Assembly (NCBI GenBank): GCA_048886685.1
Contig: JBHLKM010000011.1
Location: forward strand, 47,115 to 111,114
Origin: Candidatus Hodarchaeota archaeon
GTDB taxonomy: Archaea; Asgardarchaeota; Lokiarchaeia; Sigyniarchaeales; SOKP01
Length of the DNA: 64,000 nt
Direction: 5' to 3'
The translations under genes and the position numbers were made by a program. Below are positions 328-43,176 of this stretch, piece by piece (position 1 is the stretch's first letter; each line of letters begins with the position of its first letter). The notes under the pieces were generated by a model. The model was not told where the DNA came from, did no database searches, and saw nothing but the letters and a program-made list of their open reading frames with translations.

Positions 328-2163
328 ATGGAAGATTACGATTTGTTTGATAAAAATACACAAGCCATTATTTATGGTTTTCAAGCAAGAGCCATACAAA
401 GAATGTTAGATTTTGATTACGTTTGTAAAAGAGAAAAACCATCAGTTGCAGCAGTAATTCGCCCAACTCAAGCTGCTGCTGTTGCGTACCACAAAGTATT
501 TTGGGGATCAAATGAAATTGTTGTTCCCGTATATAAAACCCTCCAGTTAACCATTAAAAACCATCCTAATGCTGATGTCATGGTAAATTTTGCTTCATTT
601 CGATCTGCCTATCCCACAAGTAAAGAAGCGCTTGAATCTGAGACAATTCGGACAGTTGCCATTATCGCGGAGGGTATGCCAGAAAGACAGACTAGACATT
701 TGATCAAGATTGCTAATGAAAGAAATAAAGTAATTATTGGTCCTGCAACGGTGGGTGGAATGAAAGCTGGTGCCTTTAAGATTGGAAACACTGCTGGAAC
801 TATTGAAAATATAGAGTTATCCAGACTTTACAGGCCAGGTTCAGTTGGATTTGTATCTAAATCTGGTGGTTTATCTAATGAGATGAACTTCATGATTTCT
901 CAAACTACTGATGGAATTTATGAAGGGATAGCAATTGGGGGAGATAGATACCCAGGTTCTCAATTAATTGATCATCTATTGCGTTATGAAGTTAATCCTA
1001 ATATTAAAATGCTAGTTGCATTAGGAGAAATTGGTGGGAAAGATGAATATGCTATTGTTGATGCAATTAAAACCGGAAAAATAACTAAACCTTTGGTTAT
1101 TTGGGTTGCAGGAACAGGTGCGAAAATATTGCCAGCTGGATTACAATTCGGACATGCTGGTGCTATGGCGGGGAGTGATATGGAGACTGCTGAAGCAAAA
1201 AATAAAGCTTTAAAAGAAGCTGGAGCAATTGTACCTGATTCATATGAAGATTTAGACAAATTGATAAGGCAAACTTTTGATAAATTAGTACAGGAAGGAA
1301 AAGCAAAACCCGCGGAAGAATTTGAACCACCAAAAATACCTCTTGATTTTAACGATGCGACAAGATTAGGTTTAGTAAGACGCCCAACTGATGTTGTGGT
1401 AACTATAAGTGATGATCGTGGTGAAATAGTAACATTTAATCAAGTACCACTTGATAAGATTATAAGAGAAAATAAATCGTTAGGCTATGTTATTGGTTTG
1501 CTCTGGTTTAAACGTGAGTTACCAGAATTTGCGCAGCAGTATATTGAAATGGTTATAAAGTTAACTGCTGATCATGGTCCTGCTGTTTCAGGAGCGCATA
1601 ATGCAATAATTACAGCTAGAGCGGGAAAAGACTTAATGTCTGCTTTAGCAAGTGGAATTCTCACGATTGGTCCTCGATTTGGTGGTGCAGTTTCAGATGC
1701 AGCTAAATATTTCAGAGAAGCAATGCAAAAAGGAATGACTCCTGTTGAATTTATGAATTATATGAAGGATGTTGCAAAAATAAACATTCCGGGAATTGGT
1801 CACAGAGTCAAGTCAGTTCAAAATCCCGATATGCGTGTTGTTTTGTTAAAAGAATTTATATTCAAGAACTTTCCGAAGCATCCTCATTTGGATTACGCTT
1901 TAGAAGTTGAAAAAGCTACAACCTCAAAGCGAAATAATCTTATACTAAATGTTGATGGTTGTATTGGGATTACTTTTTTAGATTTATTGGAAAACTTAGA
2001 TTATACCAGAGAAGAAATTGAAGATGTAATTTATAGTGAAGCTTTAAATGGTCTCTTCGTTTTAGGAAGATCCATTGGAATGATGGGGCATATCTTTGAT
2101 CAGAAACGTCAAAGAGCAGGTTTATTCCGCCAACCTTATGATGAAATATTATTTACCGAATAA
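328..2163 (+). CDS. aclA: ATP-citrate lyase alpha subunit (CoA-binding, phospho-His and citryl-CoA lyase domains)
   Basis: NFASFRSA, IIGPATVGG, catalytic FGHAGA; C-terminal citrate-synthase-like ADHGPAVSGAHN, PGIGHRVKS, LILNVDG. Confidence 0.93.
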   Translation: MEDYDLFDKNTQAIIYGFQARAIQRMLDFDYVCKREKPSVAAVIRPTQAAAVAYHKVFWGSNEIVVPVYKTLQLTIKNHPNADVMVNFASFRSAYPTSKEALESETIRTVAIIAEGMPERQTRHLIKIANERNKVIIGPATVGGMKAGAFKIGNTAGTIENIELSRLYRPGSVGFVSKSGGLSNEMNFMISQTTDGIYEGIAIGGDRYPGSQLIDHLLRYEVNPNIKMLVALGEIGGKDEYAIVDAIKTGKITKPLVIWVAGTGAKILPAGLQFGHAGAMAGSDMETAEAKNKALKEAGAIVPDSYEDLDKLIRQTFDKLVQEGKAKPAEEFEPPKIPLDFNDATRLGLVRRPTDVVVTISDDRGEIVTFNQVPLDKIIRENKSLGYVIGLLWFKRELPEFAQQYIEMVIKLTADHGPAVSGAHNAIITARAGKDLMSALASGILTIGPRFGGAVSDAAKYFREAMQKGMTPVEFMNYMKDVAKINIPGIGHRVKSVQNPDMRVVLLKEFIFKNFPKHPHLDYALEVEKATTSKRNNLILNVDGCIGITFLDLLENLDYTREEIEDVIYSEALNGLFVLGRSIGMMGHIFDQKRQRAGLFRQPYDEILFTE

Positions 2164-2247
2164 TAATTTTTAAATTCAATTTTTTTATAATCAAAAATTA
2201 ATAAAAAAAGAAATTTTAAAAAAACCAAATATTTGGAGGAAATTTAA

Positions 2248-3438
2248 ATGACTGATATAGTTGAAAACGCAGTAAAACATTTTGAGACTCTTGTTAAAGA
2301 GCAATTAGAACGAGTCGAGAGAATGAAAAAGGCTGCAGATTGGACAGACTATTCCAAATTAAAACCGATTATTATTGGAATTGTTGGAGGGGATGGAATT
2401 GGACCATACATTACGAAACATGCTCATAAGATTTTAGATTTTTTACTTAAAGATGAAGTAGATAGTGGGGCTGTAGAATTTAGAGTTATTGAAGGATTGA
2501 CTATTGAAAATCGAGCAAAAGTAATGAAGGCTATTCCTGATGATGTTCTAGAGGAAATAAAGAGATGTCATGTCTTATTAAAGGGTCCAACTACTACACC
2601 ACGGAAAGGCGATAAATGGCCAAATATCGAAAGTGCTAATGTAACAATGAGACGTGAGTTAGATTTATTCGCCAATGTACGCCCTGTGAAAGTTCCAGAA
2701 TTAGGAATAGATTGGATGTTCTTCAGAGAAAATACTGAAGGTGCTTATGTATTAGGATCAAAAGGAATTAACATTTCTGATGATTTATCCATTGATTTCA
2801 AAGTGATAACAAAACAAGGTTCAGATAGAATTATTCGTCTAGCGTTTGATTACGCAGCTAAAAACAATATAAACCGTGTATCTGTAGTAACAAAAGCAAA
2901 TGTCGTAAAAGCTACAGATGGTAGATTTCTCGCCATGGCAGAAGAAATCGCTAAAGAATATCCCCAAGTAAAATGGGATGATTGGTATATAGATATCGCT
3001 ACTGCAAAACTCGTTGATCCTGCACGTCAAAAAGATTTTAAAGTATTTGTTGCCCCTAATCTTTATGGAGACATCATAACTGATGAAGCCGCTCAACTTC
3101 AAGGAGGAGTTGGAACAGCAGGGAGTGCAAATATAGGGAAAGAATATTCAATGTTTGAAGCTATTCATGGCTCAGCTCCTCGAATGATTGAGGAAGGAAG
3201 AGCTCAATACGCTGATCCTTCAAGTATCATAAAAGCTGCAGCACTACTTTTAAACCATATAGGATTTGTGGATAAAGCAAAACAACTTGAAATGGCTCTT
3301 GATATATGTGCAACTTATGAGAAGAAATTAAAAATGACTGGAAGAGATACCGGTGCTACAGGTGAAGAATTCGCAAAATATATTTTGGATACCCTACAAG
3401 ACCCAAACCTTGAAGAAAAATGGAATAAATATCAATAA
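2248..3438 (+). CDS. icd: Isocitrate/isopropylmalate dehydrogenase family protein, probably isocitrate dehydrogenase
   Basis: GDGIGP, LKGPTTTP, SANVTMRRELDLFANVRP, RENTEGAY, KANVVK, NLYGDIITD, FEAIHGSAP; follows aclBA. Confidence 0.75.
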   Translation: MTDIVENAVKHFETLVKEQLERVERMKKAADWTDYSKLKPIIIGIVGGDGIGPYITKHAHKILDFLLKDEVDSGAVEFRVIEGLTIENRAKVMKAIPDDVLEEIKRCHVLLKGPTTTPRKGDKWPNIESANVTMRRELDLFANVRPVKVPELGIDWMFFRENTEGAYVLGSKGINISDDLSIDFKVITKQGSDRIIRLAFDYAAKNNINRVSVVTKANVVKATDGRFLAMAEEIAKEYPQVKWDDWYIDIATAKLVDPARQKDFKVFVAPNLYGDIITDEAAQLQGGVGTAGSANIGKEYSMFEAIHGSAPRMIEEGRAQYADPSSIIKAAALLLNHIGFVDKAKQLEMALDICATYEKKLKMTGRDTGATGEEFAKYILDTLQDPNLEEKWNKYQ

Positions 3439-5211: not shown

Positions 5212-6552
5212 ATGAAGAAAAAGAGAGTAATTATAATTGGTGCTCTTGGAATGGATTTTCATGTTTTTAATACTGTTTTCAGGGATAATGAAGAATATGA
5301 CGTAGTGGCTTTTACTATTGCGGGAGAGCAAAACATTGGTACTACTGAAGAAGCTGAACGAAGATTTCCGGCTAAATTAGCAGGGAAATTATATCCAAAT
5401 GGAATTCCGATGGTATCAGAAGATTTACTCGAAGATTTAATTAAAAAACATAACGTTGATGAGGTTGTTTTCGCGTATTCAGATGTTTCTCATGAAGAAG
5501 TTATGCATAAAGCTTCCAGAGCCCTTGCTGCAGGAGCAAATTATCGATTAATTTCTGGAAGATTCACTCAATTAAAAGCGAATAAACCTGTAGTTGCTAT
5601 ATGTGCAGTAAGAACAGGTTGTGGCAAGAGTCAAGTTTCTCGAGCTACATATCGATATTTAAAGAGTAAAGGATACAAAGTTGTAGCTATTCGCGAGCCA
5701 ATGCCTTATGGTAATTTAATTCAACAAAATGTCATGCGATTCGAAAAATATGAAGATTTAGATAAATACGATTGCACCATTGAAGAGCGTGAAGAATATG
5801 AACCTTATATAAGACAAGGATTAGTAATTTATTCTGGAGTTGACTATGAAAAAATAATAAGAGAAGCAGAAAAAGAATCGGATGTTATTATTTTTGATGG
5901 GGGAAATAATGAGATTTCTTTCTATCTTACGGATTTACTATTCGTTGTTGTCGATCCTTTAAGACCAGGACACGAAAACAAATATCATCCAGGAGAAGTA
6001 AATGCTAAATATGCTGATGTTTTTGTAATTAACAAGATGAATAGTGCGAAACAAGAAGATGTTAAAATTGTGGAAAAAAATCTTGATGAATTAAACCCAA
6101 ATGCTATAAAAGTTTATACTAATTCGTTAGTTAAAGCAGAAGATCCATTAAGATTAAAGGGGAAAAAAGTTGTAGTTGTAGAAGATGGTCCTACTTTAAC
6201 TCATGGAGGGATGTCGATTGGCGCTGCATATGTTGCTGCTAAAAATGCAGAAGCAAAAATAATAGATCCTAGAAAATTTTTGGTGGGATCCATGAAGGAT
6301 GTTTTCGAAGATTTCCCTCAAATAACACAGATTGTACCTGCTATGGGTTACACTGACCAACAAATAGAAGATTTAGAGAAAACACTTAATAATGTGAAAG
6401 CAGATATAATCTTGAATGGAAGTCCTATAGATTTAAACAAATTAGTCAAGGTAAATAAACCAATTGTAAAAGTATCATATGATATCGAATCAATAGGAAG
6501 TCCTACGATTGAAGAATTGCTTGATGATTTTATTAATAAATTCTTAGAATAA
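5212..6552 (+). CDS. arcE: COG2403 P-loop protein, arginine synthetase (ArcE)-like
   Basis: DFH.FN, LAG.LYPNGIP, FAYSDVSHE.VMH.AS, AVRTGCGKSQ, PMPYG, CTIEEREEYEP, DGGNN, EDGPTLTHGGM, PAMGY match Thermococcus ArcE as I recall it; OTC, carbamate kinase and OAT lie nearby. Confidence 0.75.
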   Translation: MKKKRVIIIGALGMDFHVFNTVFRDNEEYDVVAFTIAGEQNIGTTEEAERRFPAKLAGKLYPNGIPMVSEDLLEDLIKKHNVDEVVFAYSDVSHEEVMHKASRALAAGANYRLISGRFTQLKANKPVVAICAVRTGCGKSQVSRATYRYLKSKGYKVVAIREPMPYGNLIQQNVMRFEKYEDLDKYDCTIEEREEYEPYIRQGLVIYSGVDYEKIIREAEKESDVIIFDGGNNEISFYLTDLLFVVVDPLRPGHENKYHPGEVNAKYADVFVINKMNSAKQEDVKIVEKNLDELNPNAIKVYTNSLVKAEDPLRLKGKKVVVVEDGPTLTHGGMSIGAAYVAAKNAEAKIIDPRKFLVGSMKDVFEDFPQITQIVPAMGYTDQQIEDLEKTLNNVKADIILNGSPIDLNKLVKVNKPIVKVSYDIESIGSPTIEELLDDFINKFLE

Positions 6553-7225: not shown

Positions 7226-9421
7226 ATGGAGCAAAATTCTATGATTTTGGCAGAAAAAAAATATGAAATCTACGAAGTTCAGAAGGGTTATGCTAATAGA
7301 ACCCTGTATATTAATCTTTCTAACAATGAGATTACGATTAAACCTGTTTCTGATGAAATGAAAGATAAATTCATTGGTGGAAAAGGTTTTGATTTGTGGC
7401 TTATGTGGAATTCTCTTCCAAAAGATGGTATAATTAAATGGAATGATCCTGAAAATGAGATTTGCATTTCTTCTGGTCCCTTAGGAGGGAGTATATTTTA
7501 TCCTGGATCAGGGAAGTCACTTGTGACCACAATATCACCATTGACAGGTATTATTGTGGATTCTAATGTTGGAGGTTATTTTGGACCATATCTTAAATTT
7601 TCTGGATTTGATGCATTAGAAATTCAAGGAAAAGCCCAAAAGGATGTTATTATTTATATTGATGGAATGGAAGGATTAGTTCAAATTAATGAAGTTAAAG
7701 ATTCCGATGGTTTCTCAGAATATTCTCATGAACTTACTCAACAATTAACTGAAAAATATGCAAAAGAAGACTCTGAGAAGCGACAGATCTCAGTAGTGAG
7801 CTCTGGTCCTGCCGCCAAGCATTCAAAATGGGGGATGCTTAACTTTTCGTGGTATACAACAACCCGTAAACATGCTTCTGTTAAACAAGCTGGCCGAGGG
7901 GGAATAGGGACCGTGTTTAATTATAAGAATATAAGAGCCCTCGTTTGTCGGGCACCTAAAGTAACAATAAAATCAAATAATCCAGCGGATTTAGATGCTG
8001 CTCGAGAATTAGGAAAAGTTCATAGCAAGGAAATTGTAGATATTGATCCAACTCAAAATGAGATGAGAAGAGTTGGGACGGGTTATTTACCAGATATAAT
8101 GAATGTTGTCGATCTATTACCTGTAGAAAACTTTCGATTTGGATCTCATAAAGAAATCAAAGATAAAAACATACCATTTAATCGTGAGGAGATGCGTACA
8201 GTTTACCATGTTAGAGAAGGAGCAGATGGGTGTTGGATAGGATGTACAATGTCCTGTTCACATTATACTCTTGGGCATAAAGTCATGACTGGCCCATTTA
8301 AAGGTCAAGAAGTAATTGTTGAAGGTCCTGAATATGAAACTATAGCGGGATGTGGTTCAAATTGGGGTGTTTGGGATATTAAATGGGTACTTGAAGTTAA
8401 CTTTTATTGCGACACGTATGGGTTGGATACAATCTCAACTGGTACAGGAATTGGATTTGTAATGGAATGTTATGAAGAAGGAATATTAAACAAAGAAATT
8501 ACAGGAGGACTTGAACTTAATTTTGGAAACGCCGAAGCTGCTTTAGAATTAATTCATCAGATGGCACGTGGGGAAGATTTTGGAGTTGTGGTAGGGCAAG
8601 GAATAAGAGAAATGAAGAAAATTTTTGCTGAGAAATATGGTGGAGACCCTCAATTTCTTCAAGATATAGGAATGGAACACAAGGGTTTGGAATTCTCAGA
8701 ATATATAACAAAAGAATCTCTTGCACAGCAAGGAGGATACGGATTAGCACTTAAAGGCCCTCAACATGATGAAGCATGGCTGATTTTCGAAGATATGGTA
8801 AGAAATACACTTCCTACATTTGAAGATAAAGCAAAGGCTTTACGTTGGTTTCCTTATTGGCGGACATGGTTCGGTTTGAATGGTCTCTGTAAACTACCCT
8901 GGAACGACGCTATCGGACCCCAAAATAAAGATTTGCCAGTAAAAGATCCAGAAACAGGTGAACTACTTCAAGCAAGAATACCATATCATGTTGAGTGGTA
9001 TGCAAAGTTTTTCTTTGCAGTTACTGGAAGGCAATCTACTCCAGGTGATCTTATTAAAATGTCTGAACGAGTCTATAACTTCCAAAGAATATTTAATATT
9101 AGATTAGGTCAGGGTTTACGCGAAGGTGATTCTAATTTGCCTTATAGAGCAATGGGACCTGTCTTACCTTTAGAATATGAAAGCAGATTAGAATTATATG
9201 ACTCTCAATTAAAGGATTTAGGATTTAATATTGAAGGAGAAACAACTAAAGAAAAGATTAAAATCCTCCGAAAACATCGTGAAGAACAATATTCAAAACT
9301 TCAAGATGCAGTTTATAAAGAACGTGGTTGGAACCAAAATGGGTGCCCAAGAATAGAAAAAGTCAAAGAGTTGGGAATAGACTACGATGATGTAATATCT
9401 TTAATAAAACCATATCAATAA
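7226..9421 (+). CDS. aor: Tungsten-containing aldehyde:ferredoxin oxidoreductase family protein
   Basis: SPLTG...SNVGG.FG, QAGRGGIG, CWIGCTMSC, GPEYET, DTYGLDTIS, GLCK, YKERGW. Confidence 0.9.
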   Translation: MEQNSMILAEKKYEIYEVQKGYANRTLYINLSNNEITIKPVSDEMKDKFIGGKGFDLWLMWNSLPKDGIIKWNDPENEICISSGPLGGSIFYPGSGKSLVTTISPLTGIIVDSNVGGYFGPYLKFSGFDALEIQGKAQKDVIIYIDGMEGLVQINEVKDSDGFSEYSHELTQQLTEKYAKEDSEKRQISVVSSGPAAKHSKWGMLNFSWYTTTRKHASVKQAGRGGIGTVFNYKNIRALVCRAPKVTIKSNNPADLDAARELGKVHSKEIVDIDPTQNEMRRVGTGYLPDIMNVVDLLPVENFRFGSHKEIKDKNIPFNREEMRTVYHVREGADGCWIGCTMSCSHYTLGHKVMTGPFKGQEVIVEGPEYETIAGCGSNWGVWDIKWVLEVNFYCDTYGLDTISTGTGIGFVMECYEEGILNKEITGGLELNFGNAEAALELIHQMARGEDFGVVVGQGIREMKKIFAEKYGGDPQFLQDIGMEHKGLEFSEYITKESLAQQGGYGLALKGPQHDEAWLIFEDMVRNTLPTFEDKAKALRWFPYWRTWFGLNGLCKLPWNDAIGPQNKDLPVKDPETGELLQARIPYHVEWYAKFFFAVTGRQSTPGDLIKMSERVYNFQRIFNIRLGQGLREGDSNLPYRAMGPVLPLEYESRLELYDSQLKDLGFNIEGETTKEKIKILRKHREEQYSKLQDAVYKERGWNQNGCPRIEKVKELGIDYDDVISLIKPYQ

Positions 9422-9456
9422 AAATTAAATTACTTAATTACTAATATAGAATCCAA

Positions 9457-11541
9457 ATGGAGAACATAACCTCCCATCCCATATTGAAAATACCTGAAAG
9501 AAAAAAGGTCAACTTTAGTTTTAACGACAAACAGTTATACGGATATAAAGGAATGGTAATCTCTTCAGCACTTTTTCTTAATAAGATCAAAATTTTTGGA
9601 CATCATGTTAAGGATTCAAGCCCTCAAGGAATTTTTTGCGCAAATGGGCAGTGTTCACAGTGTAATGTCATAGCTAATGGGATTCCGGTTAAAGCATGTA
9701 TGACTTCTCTCAGAGAAGGGATGATTATAGAAAGTTGTAATGGATTGCCAGAATTACCTGCTAAAGATGAACCAGTTAAGATAGGGGATCCTGAGATTAT
9801 TGATCTTGAAGTTCTAGTGATTGGTGCTGGCCCCGCAGGGTTATCTGCAACTAAAATCTTAGGAGAATCTAAACTTGAGGTTTTATTAGTCGATGATAAA
9901 GATAGACTTGGAGGTAAGTTAGTTCTTCAAACTCATAAATTTTTTGGTTCTCAAGAGGATGTTTATGCAGGGAAACGCGGTATTGAAATAGCAGAAATTC
10001 TTGGGCAATCCGTACTTTCATTAGAAAATGTTCAAGTTTGGCTTAATAGTGTGTGTTTAGCAGTTTTTAACGATGGGTATGTTGGAATTCTCAAAAATAA
10101 TAAGGAATATGTATTAGTTAAACCAAATTATCTTCTTGTTGCTACAGGGGCACGTGAAAAGATGTTAGTTTTTCCTGGTAATACTTTACCGGGAGTATAT
10201 GGTGCGGGGGCATTTCAAACATTAGTAAATCGTGATTTAATTAGAGCTGCTGAAAAAGTGTTTATTGTTGGAGGAGGAAATGTTGGTTTAATTGCAGGTT
10301 ATCATGCTATTCAGGCAGGAATCGAAGTTATTGGACTAATTGAAGCAATGCCTCAATGCGGGGGGTATAAGGTTCATGAAGATAAGTTAAGACGATTAGG
10401 TGTTCCTATTTTCACAAATCATACAGTAATCTCTGCAAATGGAGATAATAAAGTTGAGTCTATAACTATTGCTCAGATAAATAATGAATTTAAACCCATA
10501 TCTGGAACTGAAAAAACCTTTTCCTGCGATACTATCTTGATAGCAGTTGGTTTAAATCCAGTTGATGAGTTTTACCAAAAGGCAACGGAATATGGTTTAA
10601 AAGTTTGGGTCGCCGGAGATGCCCAAGAAATAGCAGAAGCTTCTGCAGCAATATTCACGGGTAAAATTGAAGCTTTAAAGATATTAAAAGAGATGGGAAT
10701 TAAAACAGAAGAGGATTTAAAAACCCTTCAGGAAATTTCTGAAGTTATGAAGTCAAAACCTCCACCCCCAATTGATGTAGACTTTACATATAAAGAAGAA
10801 GGTATTTTTCCAGTATTCTATTGTAATCAAGAAATACCTTGCAACCCTTGTACCACAGTATGCCCAAATCAACAGATTGAAACAATTGACAATTTAATTA
10901 CTCAATTGCCTTATTTTAAAGATGATCAAGAATGTATAGGATGTGGTAAATGTGTTGCTGTTTGTCCTGGGTTGGCAGTTGTGTTAAAGGATTACAGAAA
11001 GGATAAAAAAAATCCATCCGTAACGTTTCCTCTCGAACTCACCGAAAAAAGGCTTGAAAAAGGTCAAGAAATTGTTGTTACGAGTAATGATCAAGAATTA
11101 GGTCAATTTGAAGTCTATAGAGCAAGGATTCTAAAAGAATTTCCAAAAACTCAATTAATAACTGTTAAATTACCATCAGAAATAGCAAAACAAGCAGTTG
11201 CCATTAAATTATTTAAAAGCATGTATTCTGAGCCTATTGACATCTATCAAAAAGAATTTACTGATGACGCTACGATTGTTTGTAGATGTGAGCGTGTATC
11301 GGTTGGAGAGATACGTAAATGGATTCGTTCAGGTGTAAAGGATTTTAATGAATTAAAAGCTTTAACCAAAGTTGGAATGGGTGCGTGCGGTGGAAAAACT
11401 TGCACTCCTCTAATTAATAAAATATTTCAAGAGGAAGGTATTTCGATTGATGATATTATTCCTGGAACGAAACGCCCATTATTTATTGAAGTGCCGATGG
11501 GAATTTTTGCTAGTGCTAGAGAAAAAAAGGACTTGATATAA
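9457..11541 (+). CDS. Multidomain FAD/Fe-S oxidoreductase, proline dehydrogenase/sarcosine oxidase alpha-like fusion
   Basis: N-terminal 2Fe-2S (CANGQCSQC...C), GAGPAG and GGGNVG Rossmann motifs, ATGA, 2x4Fe-4S (CNPCTTVC; CIGCGKCVAVCP), C-terminal BFD-like (CRCE...GMGACGGKTC). Confidence 0.85.
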   Translation: MENITSHPILKIPERKKVNFSFNDKQLYGYKGMVISSALFLNKIKIFGHHVKDSSPQGIFCANGQCSQCNVIANGIPVKACMTSLREGMIIESCNGLPELPAKDEPVKIGDPEIIDLEVLVIGAGPAGLSATKILGESKLEVLLVDDKDRLGGKLVLQTHKFFGSQEDVYAGKRGIEIAEILGQSVLSLENVQVWLNSVCLAVFNDGYVGILKNNKEYVLVKPNYLLVATGAREKMLVFPGNTLPGVYGAGAFQTLVNRDLIRAAEKVFIVGGGNVGLIAGYHAIQAGIEVIGLIEAMPQCGGYKVHEDKLRRLGVPIFTNHTVISANGDNKVESITIAQINNEFKPISGTEKTFSCDTILIAVGLNPVDEFYQKATEYGLKVWVAGDAQEIAEASAAIFTGKIEALKILKEMGIKTEEDLKTLQEISEVMKSKPPPPIDVDFTYKEEGIFPVFYCNQEIPCNPCTTVCPNQQIETIDNLITQLPYFKDDQECIGCGKCVAVCPGLAVVLKDYRKDKKNPSVTFPLELTEKRLEKGQEIVVTSNDQELGQFEVYRARILKEFPKTQLITVKLPSEIAKQAVAIKLFKSMYSEPIDIYQKEFTDDATIVCRCERVSVGEIRKWIRSGVKDFNELKALTKVGMGACGGKTCTPLINKIFQEEGISIDDIIPGTKRPLFIEVPMGIFASAREKKDLI

Positions 11542-11543
11542 CA

Positions 11544-12710
11544 ATGGTTGAATATGATGTAATTATCATAGGGGCTGGCAGCGTTGGTGTACCAACAGCT
11601 TTAGCAGGTGCAAATGATGGCCTTCGAATACTAGTTCTCGATTTATTACCTTCAGTTGCTCAAGGGGATAATAAACACGCAATAGGAGGAATCCGAGCGA
11701 CTCATTCCCACATAGGGAAAGCCTTACTTTGTCAAAGATCGATAGAGATCTTTTCTACATGGGAAGAAAAGTATGGGGATGATATTTGGTGGCATCAAGG
11801 GGGATATACTTTTTTAGCTTTTACGGAAGAAGATGAGAAAATGCTAAAAGATACCGTAAAACTCCAAAAAAAAAATGGTTTAAATATAAATTTTGTTGAT
11901 ACTGAGAAAATTAAAGAAATTATACCAGGGATTAATGATGATGGGTTATTAGGAGGAACATATAGTCCCGAAGATGGGAATGCTTCACCCTTATTATCTT
12001 TACATGCATTTTTTCGCCAGTCAAAAGAATTAGGTGCTGAATATCACTTTAATGAAAAAGTTAATAATATAATTATAAAAAAAGATAAAATTAGGGGAGT
12101 TAAAACAACCAAATCAAAATATAAAACTAATTTTGTTATTAATGCTGCTGGTGCTCATGCTAAACATATAGGTGCCATGGTTGGTGTCAATTTCCCCGTT
12201 GATCCTGAGTCTCATGAAGCAGGTATTACTGAACCTGTTAAAAAATTCTTTTCACCAATGGTGGTTGACGTTCGACCGTTTGTTGATGAAAAATTTGGAG
12301 GTTCTAAAAATTATTACTTTTATCAAAATGATGAAGGAAAGATATTATTTTGTTTGACCCCCAATCCAAACATTTTTGGTATTGACCGTAGAGAAACTAG
12401 CTCGTTTTTACCTCAAATTTCAAAAAGAATGGTTAAGCTTTTGCCTCGTTTAAGGAATTTAAAAATTAGAAGAACATGGCGCGGTTTATACCCAATGACG
12501 GTAGATGGGAATCCAATTGTAGGTAAGATTGATGAGGTAGATGGATATATTAACGCTATTGGAATGTGTGGGCAGGGTTTCATGTTAGGACCTGGTTTAG
12601 GAGAACTTATAGGTCGACTTCTAAATCAAAAATTGAACTCTCAAGACCATGAAATTTTAAAGAGTTTATCCTATAAACGTGAATATTTTAAAGAAGAAGT
12701 ATTAAAATAG
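11544..12710 (+). CDS. FAD-dependent amino-acid dehydrogenase, DAO/sarcosine oxidase beta/proline dehydrogenase beta family
   Basis: IIIGAGSVG, NAAG, RTWRGLYPMT.DG.P, GMCGQGFMLGPG; starts 2 nt after the alpha-like gene. Confidence 0.85.
   Translation: MVEYDVIIIGAGSVGVPTALAGANDGLRILVLDLLPSVAQGDNKHAIGGIRATHSHIGKALLCQRSIEIFSTWEEKYGDDIWWHQGGYTFLAFTEEDEKMLKDTVKLQKKNGLNINFVDTEKIKEIIPGINDDGLLGGTYSPEDGNASPLLSLHAFFRQSKELGAEYHFNEKVNNIIIKKDKIRGVKTTKSKYKTNFVINAAGAHAKHIGAMVGVNFPVDPESHEAGITEPVKKFFSPMVVDVRPFVDEKFGGSKNYYFYQNDEGKILFCLTPNPNIFGIDRRETSSFLPQISKRMVKLLPRLRNLKIRRTWRGLYPMTVDGNPIVGKIDEVDGYINAIGMCGQGFMLGPGLGELIGRLLNQKLNSQDHEILKSLSYKREYFKEEVLK
12184..12608 (+). repeat. Copy 1 of a 425-bp direct repeat (3' half of the FAD oxidoreductase gene)
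   Basis: Aligns without gaps to 13734-14158 (offset 1550); I counted about 24 mismatches by eye. Confidence 0.95.
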
Positions 12711-13506: not shown

Positions 13507-13733
13507 ATGGTTAGACATTTACTTAAAATATCAGATCTTTCGAGGTCAGAATGTGAACTTATTATAAATAAAGCAATAGATATTAAAAAAAGTCCTAACA
13601 AATATTATAAATCTCTCGAGCATGAAACACTTCTAATGTTATTCGAAAAACCATCTTTAAGAACACGTATCTCATTTGAAACTGGAATGCAACAATTAGG
13701 GGGTCATGCTATTTTTTACTCGATTAAAGATTC
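13507..13733 (+). pseudogene. 5' fragment of a second ornithine carbamoyltransferase, broken at codon ~76
   Basis: MVRHLLK...FEKPSLRTRISFETGMQQLGGHAIFYSIKDS is nearly identical in protein to 15776-16003; it then joins abruptly to oxidoreductase sequence. Confidence 0.85.
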
Positions 13734-14260
13734 GTGTCAATTTACCCGTTGATCCTGAGTCTCATGAAGCAGGTATTACAGAACTTGTTAAAAAATTCTT
13801 TTCACCAATGGTAGTTGACATTCGACCGTGTGTTGATGAAAAATTTGGAGATTCTAAAAATTATTACTTTTATCAAAATAAGGAAGGAAAGATATCATTT
13901 TGTTTGACCCCTAATCCAAATATTATTGGTATTGACCGTAGAGAAACTAGCTCATTTTTACCTCAAATTTCAAAAAGAATGGTTAACCTTTTGCCCCGTT
14001 TAAGGAATTTAAAAATTAGAAGAACATGGCGCGGTCTATACCCTATGACGGCAGATGGCAATACAATTCTAGGTAAGATTGATGAGGTAGATGGATATAT
14101 TAACGCTATTGGAATGTGTGGGCAGGGTTTCATGATAGGACCTGGATTAGGAGAACTTTTAAGTCGCCTTTTAACAGAAAAAACATCCAGTAGTGATAGA
14201 GAAATTTTAGATAGTCTTTCATCTACTCGAGATTTTGGTATAATAGAAGAATTAAAATAA
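13734..14260 (+). pseudogene. 3' half of a duplicated FAD oxidoreductase (repeat copy 2), lacking the FAD-binding N-terminus
   Basis: About 94% nucleotide identity to 12184-12608, then a different C-terminal tail; no GxGxxG. Confidence 0.85.
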
Positions 14261-14278
14261 AAATGGCGAATATTTAAA

Positions 14279-14506
14279 ATGAATTTTGATATATTAGTAA
14301 AAAATGGAAAAATTATCGATGGTGCAGGAAATCCCGGATATTGAGCTGATATTGGAATAAAAAACGGCAACATAGTGAAAATTCACCCAAAATTAGATGT
14401 TCATACAGCAAAAGAAGTAATTAATGCTTCAGACATGATTATATGTTCTGGGTTTATTGATATGCATTCCCACACCGATGTTATCGGTGCTTTTATTTCA
14501 GAATGA
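14279..14506 (+). pseudogene. Truncated N-acyl-D-amino-acid deacylase/amidohydrolase
   Basis: MNFDILVKNGKIIDGAGNPGY*ADIGIKNGNIVKI...INASDMIICSGFIDMHSHTD...*. Has the HxH metal motif, an in-frame TGA at 14342, and ends after 75 codons. Confidence 0.85.
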
Positions 14507-15775: not shown

Positions 15776-16708
15776 ATGGTAAGGCATCTATTAAAAGTCT
15801 CTGATTTTTCAAAAGAAGAATGTAAAAGAGTTATTAGTAAATCTATTGAAATTAAGAAAAATCCTAAAAAATATGATAAAGAATTAGAAGGAGAAACTCT
15901 TTTAATGCTATTTGAAAAACCTTCACTGAGAACCCGAATTTCTTTTGAAACAGGTATGCAACAATTGGGTGGACATGCTATATTCTATTCAATCAAAGAT
16001 TCCCCTTTGGGTAAAAAAGAAAACATTAGTGATACAGCTAAAGTCGCATCAAGATTTGTCAACATAATAGCTGCTCGTGTCTTTAAAAGGCAAGATATTA
16101 GGGCTCTTGCAAAATATGCCGATGTTCCTGTTATTAACATGCTTGATGATTTTGCGCATCCATGTCAGATTCTTGGGGATTTTCAAACAATCAAAGAAAA
16201 GAAGGGAAGTCTTGATAACTTTAAATTATCCTATTTTGGAGATGCTAATAATAATGTTACCTATGACCTAATGAGGATGTGTGCAATGTTTGGTTTAAGA
16301 ATGGATGTTACTTGCCCTATTAATCCTGAATATTCACCTGAACAAATTGTTATAGATGAAGTATCAGAACTCTCCAAAGATAATGAGGCTGAAATAAAAG
16401 TAGTTCATGATGCACTTGAAGCTGCCAAAGATGCCGATGTGATATATACTGATAGTTGGATGAGTTATGGAATACCAGCAGAGCAAGAAGAAGAGCGAAA
16501 AAAAGCTTTTATGCCCTATCAAGTTACCTCTTCAATTATGCAAGCGGCTAAGCCAAACGCAATTTTTATGAATTGTTTGCCTGCAATGCGAGAATATGAA
16601 CAAACAGCTGATGTTATTGACGGACCACTATCAATTGTATTTGATCAGGCCGAAAATCGTCTACATATACAAAAAGCAATTATGCTCTTTTTACGAGAGA
16701 AATTTTAA
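15776..16708 (+). CDS. argF: Ornithine carbamoyltransferase, probably catabolic
   Basis: KPSLRTR, HPCQ, GDANNNVTYDLMR, YTDSWMSYG, MNCLPA, AENRLH. Confidence 0.92.
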   Translation: MVRHLLKVSDFSKEECKRVISKSIEIKKNPKKYDKELEGETLLMLFEKPSLRTRISFETGMQQLGGHAIFYSIKDSPLGKKENISDTAKVASRFVNIIAARVFKRQDIRALAKYADVPVINMLDDFAHPCQILGDFQTIKEKKGSLDNFKLSYFGDANNNVTYDLMRMCAMFGLRMDVTCPINPEYSPEQIVIDEVSELSKDNEAEIKVVHDALEAAKDADVIYTDSWMSYGIPAEQEEERKKAFMPYQVTSSIMQAAKPNAIFMNCLPAMREYEQTADVIDGPLSIVFDQAENRLHIQKAIMLFLREKF

Positions 16709-16939: not shown

Positions 16940-17854
16940 TTGAAAACATTGATTGTAGCACTGGGCGGGAATGCGCTAATCAAGTTTGGTGATGAAGGGA
17001 CAACAGAAGAACAATTTCGAAACTTACGAGTACCAATTAGTCAAATTGCGAAATTAGCAAAAGAATATAATATAATTATAACTCATGGTAATGGACCACA
17101 AGTAGGCAATCTCTTACTACAACAAGAAGCCACTCAAGCTGTTTCAAAAAGGCCATTACAAATTCTCGTAGCAGAGACGCAAGGTCAGATTGGTTTTATG
17201 ATAGAATCCACTCTAGATGAAGAATTAATGAAAATTGGTCTTGATGAAGAAAAACTCTTTCTTACTGTTCTTACATATGTGAAGGTGGACGCTGAAGACC
17301 CAGCATTTTTGAATCCAACTAAACCTATTGGCCCCGCTTATGATGTTCCAAAACCGGGATATGTGAAAACTGCAAAAGGTTATCGACGTGTAGTTCCATC
17401 GCCTAAACCTATTAAAATTTACCAGTGGCGTGAAATAAAAAAATTAATGGAATTAGGGAGTTGGATTGTAATCGCTTGCGGAGGTGGTGGTATTCCTGTA
17501 ATAAAAGAAAAAAAGAAATTATATGGGGTAGAAGCTGTAATTGATAAAGACCTAGCGAGCGCTAAATTAGCTGAACAAATTAATGCCGACATTTTATTAA
17601 TAGCAACCGATGTTGAAAAAGTTTCTCTTAATTATGGGACCTCAGACCAACAAGAATTAGACAAATTATCAATCTCTGAAGCAAAAAGGTATTTAGAAGA
17701 AAATCAATTCCCAGCAGGAAGTATGGGCCCAAAAATTCAAGCTGTAATAAATTTTTTGGAATCAGGTGGAGAAAAAGCAATAATAACGTCTATTGATAAA
17801 ATAATAGAAGCTTTAGATGGAACAGCGGGAACACACATTCATTCAAGTAATTAA
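16940..17854 (+). CDS. arcC: Carbamate kinase
   Basis: VALGGNAL, THGNGPQVG, PTKPIGP, RRVVPSP, CGGGGIPV, EAVIDKD, GSMGPK. Confidence 0.95.
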   Translation: MKTLIVALGGNALIKFGDEGTTEEQFRNLRVPISQIAKLAKEYNIIITHGNGPQVGNLLLQQEATQAVSKRPLQILVAETQGQIGFMIESTLDEELMKIGLDEEKLFLTVLTYVKVDAEDPAFLNPTKPIGPAYDVPKPGYVKTAKGYRRVVPSPKPIKIYQWREIKKLMELGSWIVIACGGGGIPVIKEKKKLYGVEAVIDKDLASAKLAEQINADILLIATDVEKVSLNYGTSDQQELDKLSISEAKRYLEENQFPAGSMGPKIQAVINFLESGGEKAIITSIDKIIEALDGTAGTHIHSSN

Positions 17855-18435: not shown

Positions 18436-19695
18436 TTACTTGATCAATACTTTTTCAATAATTTCAATAGCCCAATCAATTTCTTCTCGAGTAATTACTA
18501 AGGGGGGGGCAAACCTAATTGTTGTAGAATGAGTATCTTTTGCTAAAATTCCATTGTCTTTTAATTCTTCAACAATTTGTCTTGCATCTTCAGTAAATTC
18601 TACAGCCACAAGTAGTCCTTTACCTCTTACATCTTTGATTGGAATTTTCGTTCTTTTTTCTGCAATTTCCTTAAGTCTCTTAATAAAGTAAGATCCCATC
18701 TCTTTTGATCGCTCAGCAAGATTCTCACGTAAATGAATGTCTATAGATTTCATTGCAACTGCACATGCTAAAGGATTTCCCCCAAATGTGCTTCCATGAG
18801 TTCCAGGTTTAATTACATCTGGTCCTATAATATCTTTAGTTGTAACACATGCAGAAACGGGATAAACGCCACCCCCCAGAGCTTTACCTAATAACAACAT
18901 GTCTGGTTTTACATTTTCATGATCACAGGCAAAAAGTTCACCAGTTCGACAAAAACCAGTTTGAATTTCATCTAACACCATCAAAATATTATATTTAGTA
19001 CAAATATCTCTAACTTTCTTCAAAAATCCTTCTGGAGGGACATTTACACCAGCTTCTCCTTGTATAGGTTCAAATAAAAAAGCAGCTACTTTTTCGGGTC
19101 CAGTTTCTAAAATAATATTCTCCAATTCTTCAGCGTCTCCGTAAGGTATCATAATAAATCCCGGAGTATATGGGCCAAAATTTCCATAATAACGAACTGC
19201 TGAAATATCGGAACTAAAGCCAACAATAGTTATTGTCCTACCATGAAAATTATTTCGACATACAATAATTTTAGCTTCATTTTTAGGGATTTTTTTCTTA
19301 ATATAACCCCAAGCTCTTGCCATTTTTAAACCTGTAGATACTGCTTCTGTTCCAGTGTTCATTGGAATGCTCATTATCCCAGAATTTGTTGGATCGTTGA
19401 TGTGTGGACCTACAACTTCAGCTAGCATTTTTAAAAAAGGTCCCATTAAATCATTATGAAAGGCTCGAGAAGTTAAGGTAACGATATCTGCTTGTTCTTT
19501 TAAAGCTGCGACAATTTCAGGATGACAATGACCAGTATTCTGGCTTGAATATGCTGATAAACAGTCCAAATATTTATTACCTTCTGGATCATACACCCAA
19601 ACTCCTTCTGCTCGGGAAATTACAACGGGAATAGGATGATAATTATGAGCACAATATTTCAAATCCATTTCAATATAATCTTTTGATGTTGGCAT
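18436..19695 (-). CDS. rocD: Ornithine--oxo-acid aminotransferase
   Basis: AHNYHPIPVV, DCLSAYS, GHCHP, LTSRAF, PMNTGTEA, FHGRT, EPIQGEAGV, DEIQTG, LLGKALGGG, HGSTFGGNP. Confidence 0.92.
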   Translation of the reverse strand: MPTSKDYIEMDLKYCAHNYHPIPVVISRAEGVWVYDPEGNKYLDCLSAYSSQNTGHCHPEIVAALKEQADIVTLTSRAFHNDLMGPFLKMLAEVVGPHINDPTNSGIMSIPMNTGTEAVSTGLKMARAWGYIKKKIPKNEAKIIVCRNNFHGRTITIVGFSSDISAVRYYGNFGPYTPGFIMIPYGDAEELENIILETGPEKVAAFLFEPIQGEAGVNVPPEGFLKKVRDICTKYNILMVLDEIQTGFCRTGELFACDHENVKPDMLLLGKALGGGVYPVSACVTTKDIIGPDVIKPGTHGSTFGGNPLACAVAMKSIDIHLRENLAERSKEMGSYFIKRLKEIAEKRTKIPIKDVRGKGLLVAVEFTEDARQIVEELKDNGILAKDTHSTTIRFAPPLVITREEIDWAIEIIEKVLIK

Positions 19696-39976: not shown

Positions 39977-41866
39977 CTATTTAATTATGTTTAATTCTTT
40001 CAGCTTTTCATCAGTAGGACGACCCGTTTCCAAATCCCAACCTCTAAGTTCATAGTATTTCTCTAAATTTTCATTTAATTCAATTTTCACATCGGTAGTC
40101 TTTCCAGATTTTAATACTTTCAGAACATGATCAGGTAATCTATCATCTGCTCTAGTTATCCCTAAATTACAATTTATAAGCCTCTTCAGAGTATTGATTC
40201 GTTCTCCAACGGATAAAAGCGTATTATTATCATAATTAAACCCTGTTGCTGCATTTACATGTCCTATAATATGCTCTAAACTGGGATGAGGAAAATTACA
40301 GTTTACTGCCGAATCATCGATAGCTCTTATATCTTGTAATGAAATAACACCTTTCTCTCTTCGTTTAATGCTAATTCTATCTCCAGCTTGAACTTTTAAA
40401 TTAGCAGGAAAATTAAGAGAGCCCATTTCTGCTGTATACCAATCACATTTTGTATGATTAGCACCAACACAACATGTTATATAACTTAATGCTTGTCCAG
40501 CAAAGGCTCTGGGATCATGCATAGGTATTTCTAATCCTTTTACGTGAGCAGCCAATTCTGGGTCTACTCCAAGCTTTTCTGCCATTATTCGTACACCATC
40601 AGCAAGTATATTTCCAATACCTTGCCTTTTAGAGATCATTTCTATTAGATTTAAAATTAGAGTTCCATTCCCCCAATGAATTTCTTCAAGAGATATTTTG
40701 TGTAAATGTTGCTTTATCTGTTCAATGCCAAGCTTGTTCTCAACTAGATATAGTAAAAAGGCGATACTTACACCACATGAAATAGTATCAACTCCATAAA
40801 CATTACTTAAATGATGGGCTAAAATAACTTCTCTAGAATCAAAAAAACCACATAAAGGACCAAAAGCAGCAACAGATTCATATTCAGGACCATCTACTAT
40901 AATTTCTTTACCATTATCTTCTACAATTGTTCGTTTCCCGCATTTTATTGTACAACCAGCGCATCCGTAATCTAATACGGGATATTCTTCTCTCAATGTC
41001 TTCCCTGTCAATTTTTCAGCAAAAAATTCAGTTTCAGTAAAATAGTACGCAGGAGTATCCCCAAGCGCCATTCCTATATCAAGATAACCGTTGGTACCAT
41101 ATAATGTAAATAAAAATACCCCTAAACTCGCAGTTGCATCTCCTTTTAGCGCGTCTTCAGCTTGCTTAATTAATTCTTTTCCAAGATTACTATCAACTAT
41201 TTGGACTCTACCACTTCCTAAAACTGCTAGTGCTTTTAAATTTTTTGAAGCCATAAGTGACCCTAATCCACATCTTCCAATAGCTCTTCCTTCGTCGTTT
41301 ATCATAGCAGCATACTTTACTAAATTTTCTGCTGCTTGACCAATAGTTACAACTCTCACTCGTTCATTATTTAATTCTTTTTTTATCAATTCCTGTGTTT
41401 CATAAGTATCCTTACCCCAATACCCACTTGCGTCTTTAATTTCAATAGTTTTGTCATGAATATATAAAAAACATGGAGTATTAGATTTCCCAGTAATAAC
41501 TATCGCATCAAAACCACTATTTCTTAATGAGACACAAAAAAAACCTCCAGAAGTACTTTCTCCCCAAATTTTGGTGAGGGGGGAAATCCCTGTTACCGAA
41601 TATCTGCCTGAGGATGGTCTAATAGTACCTGTTACTGGCCCTGTTGCAAAGATTAGAGGATTAATTTCATGAAAGGGATCATTTTTTAAGGTTTCATAAT
41701 CACTTCCTGATAATAAATCATAGGTTAATTTGGCACTTAATCCTGTTCCACCTAAATATTCTCTGGCAATAGTGTGGTCTAAATCTTTAGTTTCCCATTT
41801 CTTATTATTTAAATCGACAAATGCAACCTTTCCATTATAACCAATTAATTCTTCACTCATTTTCAT
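39977..41866 (-). CDS. aor: Aldehyde:ferredoxin oxidoreductase (second AOR-family gene)
   Basis: YLGGTG, SPLT..WGESTSGG, GRCGLG, CAGCTIKC, GPEYES, GVDTIS, VKGLEIPMHDPR, YYELRGWD. Confidence 0.9.
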   Translation of the reverse strand: MKMSEELIGYNGKVAFVDLNNKKWETKDLDHTIAREYLGGTGLSAKLTYDLLSGSDYETLKNDPFHEINPLIFATGPVTGTIRPSSGRYSVTGISPLTKIWGESTSGGFFCVSLRNSGFDAIVITGKSNTPCFLYIHDKTIEIKDASGYWGKDTYETQELIKKELNNERVRVVTIGQAAENLVKYAAMINDEGRAIGRCGLGSLMASKNLKALAVLGSGRVQIVDSNLGKELIKQAEDALKGDATASLGVFLFTLYGTNGYLDIGMALGDTPAYYFTETEFFAEKLTGKTLREEYPVLDYGCAGCTIKCGKRTIVEDNGKEIIVDGPEYESVAAFGPLCGFFDSREVILAHHLSNVYGVDTISCGVSIAFLLYLVENKLGIEQIKQHLHKISLEEIHWGNGTLILNLIEMISKRQGIGNILADGVRIMAEKLGVDPELAAHVKGLEIPMHDPRAFAGQALSYITCCVGANHTKCDWYTAEMGSLNFPANLKVQAGDRISIKRREKGVISLQDIRAIDDSAVNCNFPHPSLEHIIGHVNAATGFNYDNNTLLSVGERINTLKRLINCNLGITRADDRLPDHVLKVLKSGKTTDVKIELNENLEKYYELRGWDLETGRPTDEKLKELNIIK

Positions 41867-41883
41867 TCACTTCTATTTAATCA

Positions 41884-43176
41884 TTAAAAATCTATATTTT
41901 TTCCATCCCAGGCATATTCAAATATTTTTTTATAAAGGGTTTTACTCATAGGTCGGTAAGATAAAAGAGTAACGATATCATTATCTGCATATTCTGTTAA
42001 AACATCAAGTTTTTCCATGTATTCTTCTTTAGTTATTGATGGTTGACTCAATTCCTTTACACATACTGGTCCATCCATCGAATGGATAAACTTTTTTACT
42101 GCATTCATTAATTCTTGAAATAATGTATTTCTATCTTTATTATCAGGAGTTACGTTAAAAATAGGGCATAAATCTTTCCATCTATCTGTGACTTTCGCCT
42201 GAAATCCTATAGAATACGGTAAAAACAAACCCACAGACAGACCATGATGTACCTTAAAAACTTTTCCGAAACTATGACCTAAAGCATGATCAATCCCAGG
42301 AACAGTGTTCCCAAATCCAAGTCCTCCTAATAATGCAGCTAATTGCATGTGGGCTCTGGCTTCTGTATCACCTTTTCCATATTTATAGGCTCTTGGAAGG
42401 TATTTTATAACTTCTCTTATCGCAGCTATGTTTATAGCATCAGCAAGCGGATTTCCCCAGTTAGATACGTAACTGCCAAAAGCATGAGCGAACGCATCTA
42501 AACCAGATCCTAATGTTAAGAAGGGAGGCATATCTTCAACAAAAGCTGTATCGAGGATAGCAATATCAGGAACCAGTTCGGCATTATTCACAGCTAATTT
42601 TTTATGAGGTGTCCTATTAGTATCGGTAAGCATTGAAGTCCCTGTTACTTCTGATCCAGTTCCAGAAGTAGTAGGAATTGCCACTAAATATCTAACTTTT
42701 TTCCGTAATCCTAGAGGATCACCAATGGGAAGGAGCATAAATAAATTGGCATCAGGTTTCTCATATTTTAGCATAATTGATTTTGCAGCATCCATAACGC
42801 TACCACCCCCAATTGCAATAATCATTATTGGTCTAAATTCTTCACAAATTCTGACTCCTTCATCTATGTTAGCAAATGGTACTTCTGGTTCTATTCCAGA
42901 AAAGATTTTATATTCGATTTCATTAAAATCAAGGTCTTCAGTTACTTTACTAGTAAATTTTTGAGTAAAGGAATCAACTACAATCAAAGCTCTTCTATCT
43001 TCTTTATCAAGGATAGCTTTCATTAATGAAGCCATTGATGAGACACCAGCTTTCCCCATATATACGATTGGTGAATTAAAGGAAGACGTAATTCCTCTAA
43101 TGGCTTTACCACCGAATAATCCCATCATATCCTTGATCATTTGCATTTCATACCATGCAGGTTGCTTTCCACTCAT
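41884..43176 (-). CDS. Iron-containing alcohol dehydrogenase
   Basis: IGGGSVMDAAK, IPTTSGTGSEVT, DAFAH, HALGH, HHG. Confidence 0.9.
   Translation of the reverse strand: MSGKQPAWYEMQMIKDMMGLFGGKAIRGITSSFNSPIVYMGKAGVSSMASLMKAILDKEDRRALIVVDSFTQKFTSKVTEDLDFNEIEYKIFSGIEPEVPFANIDEGVRICEEFRPIMIIAIGGGSVMDAAKSIMLKYEKPDANLFMLLPIGDPLGLRKKVRYLVAIPTTSGTGSEVTGTSMLTDTNRTPHKKLAVNNAELVPDIAILDTAFVEDMPPFLTLGSGLDAFAHAFGSYVSNWGNPLADAINIAAIREVIKYLPRAYKYGKGDTEARAHMQLAALLGGLGFGNTVPGIDHALGHSFGKVFKVHHGLSVGLFLPYSIGFQAKVTDRWKDLCPIFNVTPDNKDRNTLFQELMNAVKKFIHSMDGPVCVKELSQPSITKEEYMEKLDVLTEYADNDIVTLLSYRPMSKTLYKKIFEYAWDGKNIDF

Follow-up and report, generated by a model that had tools for sequence, protein, structure and literature searches.

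A WOR-family protein encoded among arginine and ornithine genes of a Lokiarchaeial genome as a candidate glutamate-semialdehyde:ferredoxin oxidoreductase

A physiological role has been defined for only five of the 92 clades of the tungsten-dependent WOR family (PMC13328260). Among characterised members, GAPOR and GOR are pathway-specific enzymes that replace an NAD(P)-dependent step and make reduced ferredoxin, and the formaldehyde oxidoreductase FOR of Pyrococcus furiosus (1B25/1B4N) has a proposed semialdehyde substrate. The Thermococcales possess dye-linked L-proline dehydrogenases of two kinds, PDH1 (alpha4beta4, 1Y56) and PDH2 (pdhAFXB), and in Thermococcus kodakarensis ArcE, ArcB, ArcC and OrnAT provide the gene set that leads from arginine through ornithine to glutamate-5-semialdehyde (GSA). 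Here, a cluster with relatives of these enzymes is described in a 64,000-nucleotide stretch of DNA, referred to as the window, from an archaeon catalogued as Candidatus Hodarchaeota and placed by GTDB in the Lokiarchaeia (assembly GCA_048886685.1, contig JBHLKM010000011.1, positions 47,115 to 111,114). The source genome is 4.4 Mb in size and AT-rich, with 100% completeness and 8.4% contamination.

At the core of the cluster are three genes on the forward strand, wor, alpha and beta, separated by 35 nt and 2 nt, an arrangement already recorded in a preliminary description of this DNA. The first (7226..9421) encodes a 731-aa WOR/AOR-family large subunit with the Pfam domains AFOR_N and AFOR_C. 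The second (9457..11541) specifies a 694-aa Fe-S flavoprotein, alpha, with Fer2_4, Pyr_redox_2, Fer4 and Fer2_BFD domains, and the third (11544..12710) a 388-aa catalytic subunit, beta, of the DAO family (Pfam DAO). Their spacing suggests a single transcript. The interpretation preferred here, held with moderate confidence, is that the WOR is a GSA:ferredoxin oxidoreductase and that alpha and beta constitute a fused, PDH2-like L-proline dehydrogenase. The WOR would interconvert GSA, the open form of pyrroline-5-carboxylate (P5C), and glutamate at a tungsten-bis-pterin site without NAD or ATP, and ferredoxin or an Fe-S partner would receive two low-potential electrons by way of its [4Fe-4S] cluster. 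GSA is supported as the substrate because of gene neighbourhoods in at least five lineages, a FOR-like pocket and the absence of RocA.

The strongest argument is independent of the 64-kb window: genes for WORs of this type are recurrently linked to genes for enzymes of GSA and P5C. Seventy-three metagenome loci from outside the Asgard archaea, with WORs at 56–61% identity, were inspected. Alpha and/or beta are found in 22 of them, in other gene orders, upstream or inverted; proC is present in 15, adjacent and co-oriented in 11, preceding wor in one lineage and following it in two. proB-proA is located directly upstream of wor in four loci, and a cyclodeaminase-family gene that scores below all specific cut-offs is found in six. 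Altogether, 38 of the 73 loci contain at least one marker neighbour. The co-oriented order proB-proA-wor is observed in Bathyarchaeia-like contigs (L109, L114, L143 and L144, for example L144:3243-7834). A survey of 221 Bacteroidales genomes, an order in which tungsten enzymes have been little studied, disclosed the WOR in 91 (41%), and wor and pruA lie no more than 5.1 kb apart in at least 11 of the 70 genomes that have both. ThiF-like and ThiS-like genes often adjoin the Bacteroidales wor; in some cases a neighbour is pruA or a proline dehydrogenase gene. In published tables of WORs of about 720 aa, the Geosporobacter gene is accompanied by soxA/B-like genes (a split alpha, and beta), worSL, thiS, proA and proB, and others by P5C dehydrogenase or proC genes (PMC13328260 supplement). 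The contexts with proC, proBA, PruA and alpha-beta fall in separate WOR subclades of the tree. As ProC, ProA, PruA, RocD and proline dehydrogenase have GSA/P5C in common, this metabolite is the predicted substrate. One 2.1-kb contig in a Rikenellaceae bin (L047, G120:C380) is probably misbinned, since its WOR shares 77% identity with the Lokiarchaeial protein and the bin's own copy 56%.

The closest named relatives of the 731-aa WOR are nearly all from Promethearchaeota/Lokiarchaeia, and its identity to every solved WOR is about 30% or less. An exhaustive search delineated a compact clade of 700–740-aa proteins around it. In the WOR tree, archaeal and bacterial members of this clade group together with support of 0.999–1.0, apart from five of the source genome's about ten other WOR paralogs, which were placed in the same tree; characterised WORs were compared by HMMER and structure scores instead. 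The clade probably corresponds to clades 1–7 of the 2026 classification (Putumbaka 2026), an equation made by length (716–727 aa), hosts (Synergistota, Bacteroidota and Clostridia) and context (WorS/ThiS and sox-like/proAB neighbours) rather than by sequence comparison. None of these seven clades is listed as characterised, and the main text of that work makes no mention of proline or glutamate (PMC13328260).

The predicted structure (pLDDT 84.5) adopts the WOR fold, in keeping with the earlier assignment to the AOR family, with Z scores of about 40 to FOR, AOR and the WOR of Acetomicrobium mobile. The [4Fe-4S] ligands C336, C340, C344 and C555 are kept in 188 of 188 clade members. The second shell comprises T285 (177 Thr, 11 Ser) and E371, Y493 and H514, which are kept throughout; this is the Thr/Glu/Tyr/His set used by aldehyde-oxidising WORs (PMC12096430). 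As cysteines and second shell are kept in all 188 members, the WOR is expected to oxidise an aldehyde. FOR shares this second shell and the fold (TM 0.86, Z 39.7), as well as the HxEAWxI and C[KR]LPW motifs, and the profile alignment through the C-terminal pocket has its best reach with this protein. The invariant residues R546 and K556 are placed by this alignment on FOR R481 and R492, in the common C[KR]LPW motif. These two arginines of FOR reportedly hold the distal carboxylate of glutarate (Hu and colleagues, 1999); the binding of glutarate by FOR has been seen in the crystal (PMC12096430). FOR is nevertheless not an orthologue: it is tied by Z with AOR_Pf, AOR_Ca and the A. mobile WOR and reaches only 162 bits and 26–30% identity, where full-length members of the clade itself exceed 390 bits. 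The protein described here is also about 110 aa longer, has a Cx3Cx3C spacing, and bears an aspartate, D515, in place of the FOR lysine beside the catalytic histidine. D515 could receive an alpha-amino group of the substrate, and the invariant acidic residues E497, D515, D523 and D561 could bind such a group. The metal is presumed to be tungsten and not molybdenum from knowledge of the family; the source genome contains one PBP_like_2 solute-binding gene, of a type not assigned to TupA. Other identities were rejected, namely GAPOR, whose substrate also differs from the proposed GSA (48 bits against an NCBIfam cut-off of 1300), and YdhV/BamB (105 bits against 868; second-shell tyrosine and histidine retained).

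The location of the three genes inside an arginine/ornithine cluster, indicated in the preliminary description, was borne out. Downstream are an ornithine carbamoyltransferase gene (OTC, ArgF/ArcB; 15776..16708, forward strand; TIGR00658, 361 bits, cut-off 281), a carbamate kinase gene (CK, ArcC; 16940..17854, forward strand; TIGR00746, 373 bits, cut-off 358) and a convergent, reverse-strand gene for a RocD-type ornithine aminotransferase (OAT; 18436..19695; TIGR01885, 527 bits, cut-off 378), which interconverts ornithine plus 2-oxoglutarate and GSA plus glutamate. Upstream, a 446-aa protein (5212..6552, forward strand) shows a weak match to cyclic 2,3-diphosphoglycerate synthetase and bears the Atlas name 'putative GTPase'. 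Descriptions of ArcE homologs agree with both names, and Lokiarchaeota are among the listed hosts (PMC11032458); in complete genomes the gene stands in an operon-like run with argF-arcC. Names, published homolog list and operon company fit a putative ArcE-like arginine synthetase, which would interconvert arginine, ADP and phosphate with citrulline, ammonia and ATP. Arginine would thus be converted to citrulline by ArcE with a yield of ATP, to ornithine and carbamoyl phosphate by OTC, with a further ATP from CK, and to GSA by OAT; the published route from arginine to ornithine gives two ATP, via ArcE and CK (PMC11032458). Proline would reach P5C/GSA through alpha-beta, so that OAT and alpha-beta would both feed the WOR. 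In T. kodakarensis GSA proceeds to proline, whereas here the WOR and the PDH-like pair would open a route to or from glutamate.

A P5C dehydrogenase gene is absent from the window, as stated before. The search of the whole genome that had been suggested gave a matching picture: there are two aldehyde dehydrogenases, both far below the RocA cut-offs (311 against 648 bits), no Pro_dh domain and no RocA or PutA. The WOR would stand in for the missing NAD-dependent enzyme by taking GSA to glutamate. RocA, PruA and PutA have the same proposed substrate and product, but differ from the WOR in fold and cofactor, form NADH and not reduced ferredoxin, and are practically irreversible. proC, carB, OTC, OAT and ArcE are present in the source genome, and proA, argC and argG were not found there, so the WOR could also make GSA. 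This gene content fits either the uptake of peptide-derived arginine and proline or an ATP-free synthesis of GSA from glutamate.

Alpha displays a [2Fe-2S] Fer2_4 domain (aa 16-95), an FAD/NAD(P) Pyr_redox_2 domain (118-378), two [4Fe-4S] clusters (456-504) and a BFD [2Fe-2S] domain (607-659), and every cluster cysteine is invariant among 28 sequences. This is the order of pdhA-pdhF-pdhX of the alpha-beta-gamma-delta L-proline dehydrogenase, joined in one 694-aa chain and followed, as in the pdhAFXB order of the four-subunit Thermococcus enzyme (PMC4364671), by a DAO-type beta. Thermococcales L-proline dehydrogenase is among the top two solved matches for alpha, whose AlphaFold model is mediocre (pLDDT 69, pTM 0.55) and was used for the fold family only. 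The best solved match of beta is the P. horikoshii L-proline dehydrogenase beta subunit (1y56_B, 192 bits, against 88 for sarcosine oxidase beta). All 71 clade members share R51, the RxW motif (310-312), Y316 and M347; R310 and W312 of this FMN motif (PMC4575208) are thus found in 71 of 71 sequences. The pair is predicted to form a heteromeric dehydrogenase interconverting L-proline and P5C, its small Fe-S subunits fused into alpha. A 540-aa amidohydrolase with a D-aminoacylase-like N-terminus (PRK09061 below cut-off) is encoded after beta in 11 Lokiarchaeial clusters (for example L015:8255-9877), a possible sign that the substrates are N-acyl or D-amino acids. In Cloacibacillus (L174:215-10976) an unfused, four-gene PDH form stands beside a WOR of the same clade: the locus comprises genes for three RraA-like aldolases, an AcnX dehydratase, split PDH-like proteins, WorS and an 862-aa WOR, and looks like a hydroxyproline-type pathway.

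The cluster recurs in related genomes. Among 71 related loci, counted up to the contig ends, 51 have alpha, 44 beta, 44 ArcE, 42 OTC, 31 CK and 25 OAT; the recurring order, arcE-wor-alpha-beta-argF-arcC with convergent rocD, is not due to chance, as it is repeated across these loci. In 15 loci (for example L001:3473-4036) arcE and wor are separated by a gene that is flavodoxin-like by its sequence pattern and has no NCBIfam hit; its product is a possible low-potential electron carrier for the WOR. Of 120 Lokiarchaeia, 86 possess the WOR, nearly always in single copy, 75 beta, 71 ArcE, 24 proA and 34 argG; 68 of the 86 also have beta, and RocA is above its cut-off in none of the 120. Two almost mutually exclusive gene sets emerge. 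Type A consists of WOR, alpha-beta and ArcE, and 59 of the 68 genomes with WOR and beta lack both proA and argG. Type B combines WOR with proA; argG is present in 16 of these 17 genomes and alpha-beta or ArcE almost never. proA and ArcE coexist in only one genome. Type A is represented by genera g1, g2 and g11 and the complete genomes, type B by g3, g5-g7, g9, g10 and most of g12: the WOR is the part retained in both. Seven stand-alone Lokiarchaeial copies have proC within 2 kb. The notion that the WOR replaces proBA wherever it lies beside proC was discarded, proA being present in 15 of 18 Lokiarchaeia with the WOR and without beta.

Calculated with standard potentials, oxidation of GSA with ferredoxin as acceptor amounts to about -25 kJ/mol, oxidation of proline with NAD+ to about +38 kJ/mol, and the two steps together onto NAD+ to about -1 to -12 kJ/mol. 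As proline oxidation is this unfavourable even against NAD+, reduced ferredoxin would come only from the WOR step. The ferredoxin-linked amino-acid oxidation initially envisaged thus holds for the WOR and fails for the proline step, which, being endergonic, would require coupling or a higher-potential sink. Alternatively, alpha-beta would operate as a P5C reductase and dispose of the WOR electrons (2 GSA -> Glu + Pro).

A number of observations weigh against the interpretation of the WOR as a GSA oxidoreductase acting with a proline dehydrogenase. Broad aldehyde detoxification is the function of most characterised WORs (PMC13328260), and the activity of this clade is a prediction from sequence and context. 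No marker neighbour is found in 35 of the 73 non-Asgard loci, many of them short, nor in 15 of the 39 loci of at least 8 kb (about 40%); furthermore, the genomes are related, so that counts are not independent. PruA is also present in 70 of the 91 WOR-bearing Bacteroidales, and for this reason the WOR is not a plain substitute for P5C dehydrogenase: the proposal that it joins proline and arginine turnover is backed by the neighbourhoods, the pocket and the lack of RocA, while simple replacement of that enzyme is not. Mutual exclusion of the two in Bacteroidales was likewise rejected, with an odds ratio of 2.7 towards co-occurrence among kin that are not independent. The identity of beta to PDH1 beta is only about one-third; the beta sequences cluster tightly by themselves, with altered substrate-side motifs (GIRATH versus GIRQQF, CGQGF versus SGHGF), and BjOpnDH2, a near kin of L-proline dehydrogenase, is inactive on proline (PMC4575208). 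Due to these features L-proline is a likely but unproven substrate of alpha-beta, predicted with confidence slightly above even. Eight of 53 Lokiarchaeial loci carry an insertion of more than 1 kb between wor and alpha, often thiC (five loci, for example L003:5814-7085), and in three single-contig complete genomes wor, alpha-beta and arcE-argF-arcC-rocD occupy three separate sites. As the genes are often apart and 90 of the 91 WOR-bearing Bacteroidales lack beta, which occurs in a single one, the triplet is not obligate: its order with argF and rocD is conserved in the related loci, and the WOR and alpha-beta are pathway partners. Finally, five proBA-type Lokiarchaeia that were examined have the WOR and no RocD above cut-off; with alpha-beta and ArcE missing from their genera, type B offers no visible catabolic source of GSA.

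The last point bears on the direction of the reaction, which may also be reductive. A mainly reductive WOR would convert glutamate to GSA at the expense of reduced ferredoxin, with no ATP needed, and so supply ProC (proline) and the series OAT-OTC-ArcE (arginine); where proBA is present, ProB, ProA and WOR would form an ATP-driven cycle from NADPH to ferredoxin. This version has a minor though appreciable chance of being correct. The source genome's proC and carB, with no proA, argC or argG found, the type A and type B gene contents and the many loci in which wor adjoins proC or follows proBA are in its favour, as are the reversibility of ArcE, proposed to be biosynthetic in some organisms (PMC11032458), and the precedent of the PGK/GAPDH/GAPOR cycle (PMC3585446). 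Since type B has no visible catabolic GSA source, the ProB/ProA/WOR cycle is a possible option there. However, peptide-feeding archaea are able to import arginine and proline, the formation of proline from arginine in T. kodakarensis is explained by ArcE and OAT without recourse to a WOR (PMC11032458), reduction of an acid requires ferredoxin of very low potential, and nearness to pruA in Bacteroidales indicates catabolism. A related pathway with other substrates is rather unlikely: the WOR would act on a different omega-carboxy-aldehyde (the semialdehyde of glutarate, 2-oxoglutarate, aminoadipate or hydroxyglutamate), with beta oxidising hydroxyproline, pipecolate or a D-imino acid. In its favour, the pocket has the features of FOR, an enzyme that works best on glutaric dialdehyde, and in Cloacibacillus the WOR gene comes after a split PDH and an AcnX gene whose best match, cis-3-hydroxyproline dehydratase, scores below cut-off. 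In addition, the cyclodeaminase-family neighbours stay under every specific cut-off, and the amidohydrolase follows beta in 11 loci. Yet the recurrent neighbours proC, proBA, pruA and rocD are all specific to GSA/P5C, and among gene clusters present in at least three non-Asgard loci no lysine-pathway gene recurs.

It is also conceivable, and on balance improbable, that the three proteins form one complex in which alpha, as a fused WorS/WorN, lets GSA oxidation drive proline oxidation onto NAD+ (Pro + 2 NAD+ -> Glu + 2 NADH). The energetics demand such coupling or another sink, alpha combines Fer4 and NAD(P)-binding domains like WorS and WorN of Class III WORs but groups with PDH/sarcosine-oxidase alpha subunits and travels with beta, and a small Fer4 gene upstream of wor is found in none of 79 loci with alpha-beta and in 10 loci without it. 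However, no known bifurcating-flavin architecture is recognisable in alpha, in many genomes the genes are unlinked or have insertions between them, and three genomes with alpha-beta elsewhere (L160, L161 and L163) still have a WorS gene. A complex prediction for the WOR with alpha residues 440-600 scored below the mark and speaks neither way. Decidedly doubtful is a general detoxifying AOR that stands near amino-acid genes only on account of peptide fermentation. Characterised WORs have this role by default, and many loci are stand-alone or adjoin thiS/thiF-like cofactor genes; still, the other paralogs of the source genome could do that job, the charged pocket residues are near-invariant across archaea and bacteria, and the linkage to GSA-specific genes is repeated in separate subclades. 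The glycine or sarcosine oxidation put forward earlier as an alternative, followed by oxidation of glyoxylate or formaldehyde, is very improbable. Automatic names read 'sarcosine oxidase' and beta has the Arg51-type site of such enzymes, but scores are far below cut-offs (soxA 155 bits versus 1164; soxB 103 versus 529; ThiO 112 versus 251), alpha has no folate-binding GCV_T domain, soxD/soxG are absent, methionine replaces the sarcosine-oxidase lysine of the GxGFK motif in beta, and one-carbon genes are not recurrent neighbours. A heterotetrameric sarcosine oxidase was rejected: the folate-binding alpha C-terminus and gamma/delta genes are lacking, and no NCBIfam cut-off is reached.

A 3-kb interval of other DNA separates beta from argF in the source genome and contains a decayed argF/beta/amidohydrolase duplicate (13507..14485, forward strand) recognised by nucleotide identity to intact copies. 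Its 5' argF part is 73.6% identical to 15776-16002 and its 3' beta part, whose reading frame runs to 14260, is 92.9% identical to 12181-12632; it ends with a frameshifted 5' fragment of the amidohydrolase, intact after beta in the 11 relatives. The divergence is too large for a simple assembly repeat. The argF/beta junction is spanned by one contig from a possible source sequencing run, and DNA contigs of one study cover the region; the listed sequencing runs that hold it include none of RNA. A sigma-70 promoter and terminator scan gave chance-level output, the bacterial model being ill-suited to an archaeon, and the WOR had no match in plasmid sequences. At 328-3438 the window harbours an ATP-citrate lyase-like alpha/citryl-CoA lyase fusion (ACL) and an isocitrate/isopropylmalate dehydrogenase-family gene (IDH), which also have an upstream position in several relatives (ACL 6 loci, IDH 12 loci); these could supply or use 2-oxoglutarate for OAT. 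A second WOR of ordinary length (629 aa, 27% identical to the first) adjoins an iron-containing alcohol dehydrogenase gene (39977-43176, reverse strand), and the 1931-aa product of 51305-57100 (reverse strand), which weakly matches the Ig-like domain Big_1, is probably a large surface protein.

The literature, most subscription papers lying outside the search, yielded no description of a tungsten GSA oxidoreductase. The enzyme families are known; GSA as substrate and the pathway role would be new for WORs. A broader hypothesis, speculative and with a modest chance of being right, regards the clade as reversible glutamate/GSA:ferredoxin oxidoreductases, which would offer an ATP-free entry to proline and arginine synthesis in Lokiarchaeia without proBA, argC and argG, an ATP-driven ferredoxin-reducing cycle with ProB/ProA, or electron-confurcating oxidation of proline and GSA with alpha-beta. 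If the GSA assignment is true, a large clade present in most Lokiarchaeia, 41% of the sampled Bacteroidales and Bathyarchaeia-like, Desulfobacterota-like and Synergistota genomes would acquire a specific substrate, testable by assay in cultured hosts of probable members (Acetomicrobium mobile, Cloacibacillus and Geosporobacter). It would fill a pathway gap in Asgard archaea and add a ferredoxin-linked step to the anaerobic fermentation of arginine and proline in sediments and digesters; if reversible, the reaction would be a new route to proline and ornithine.

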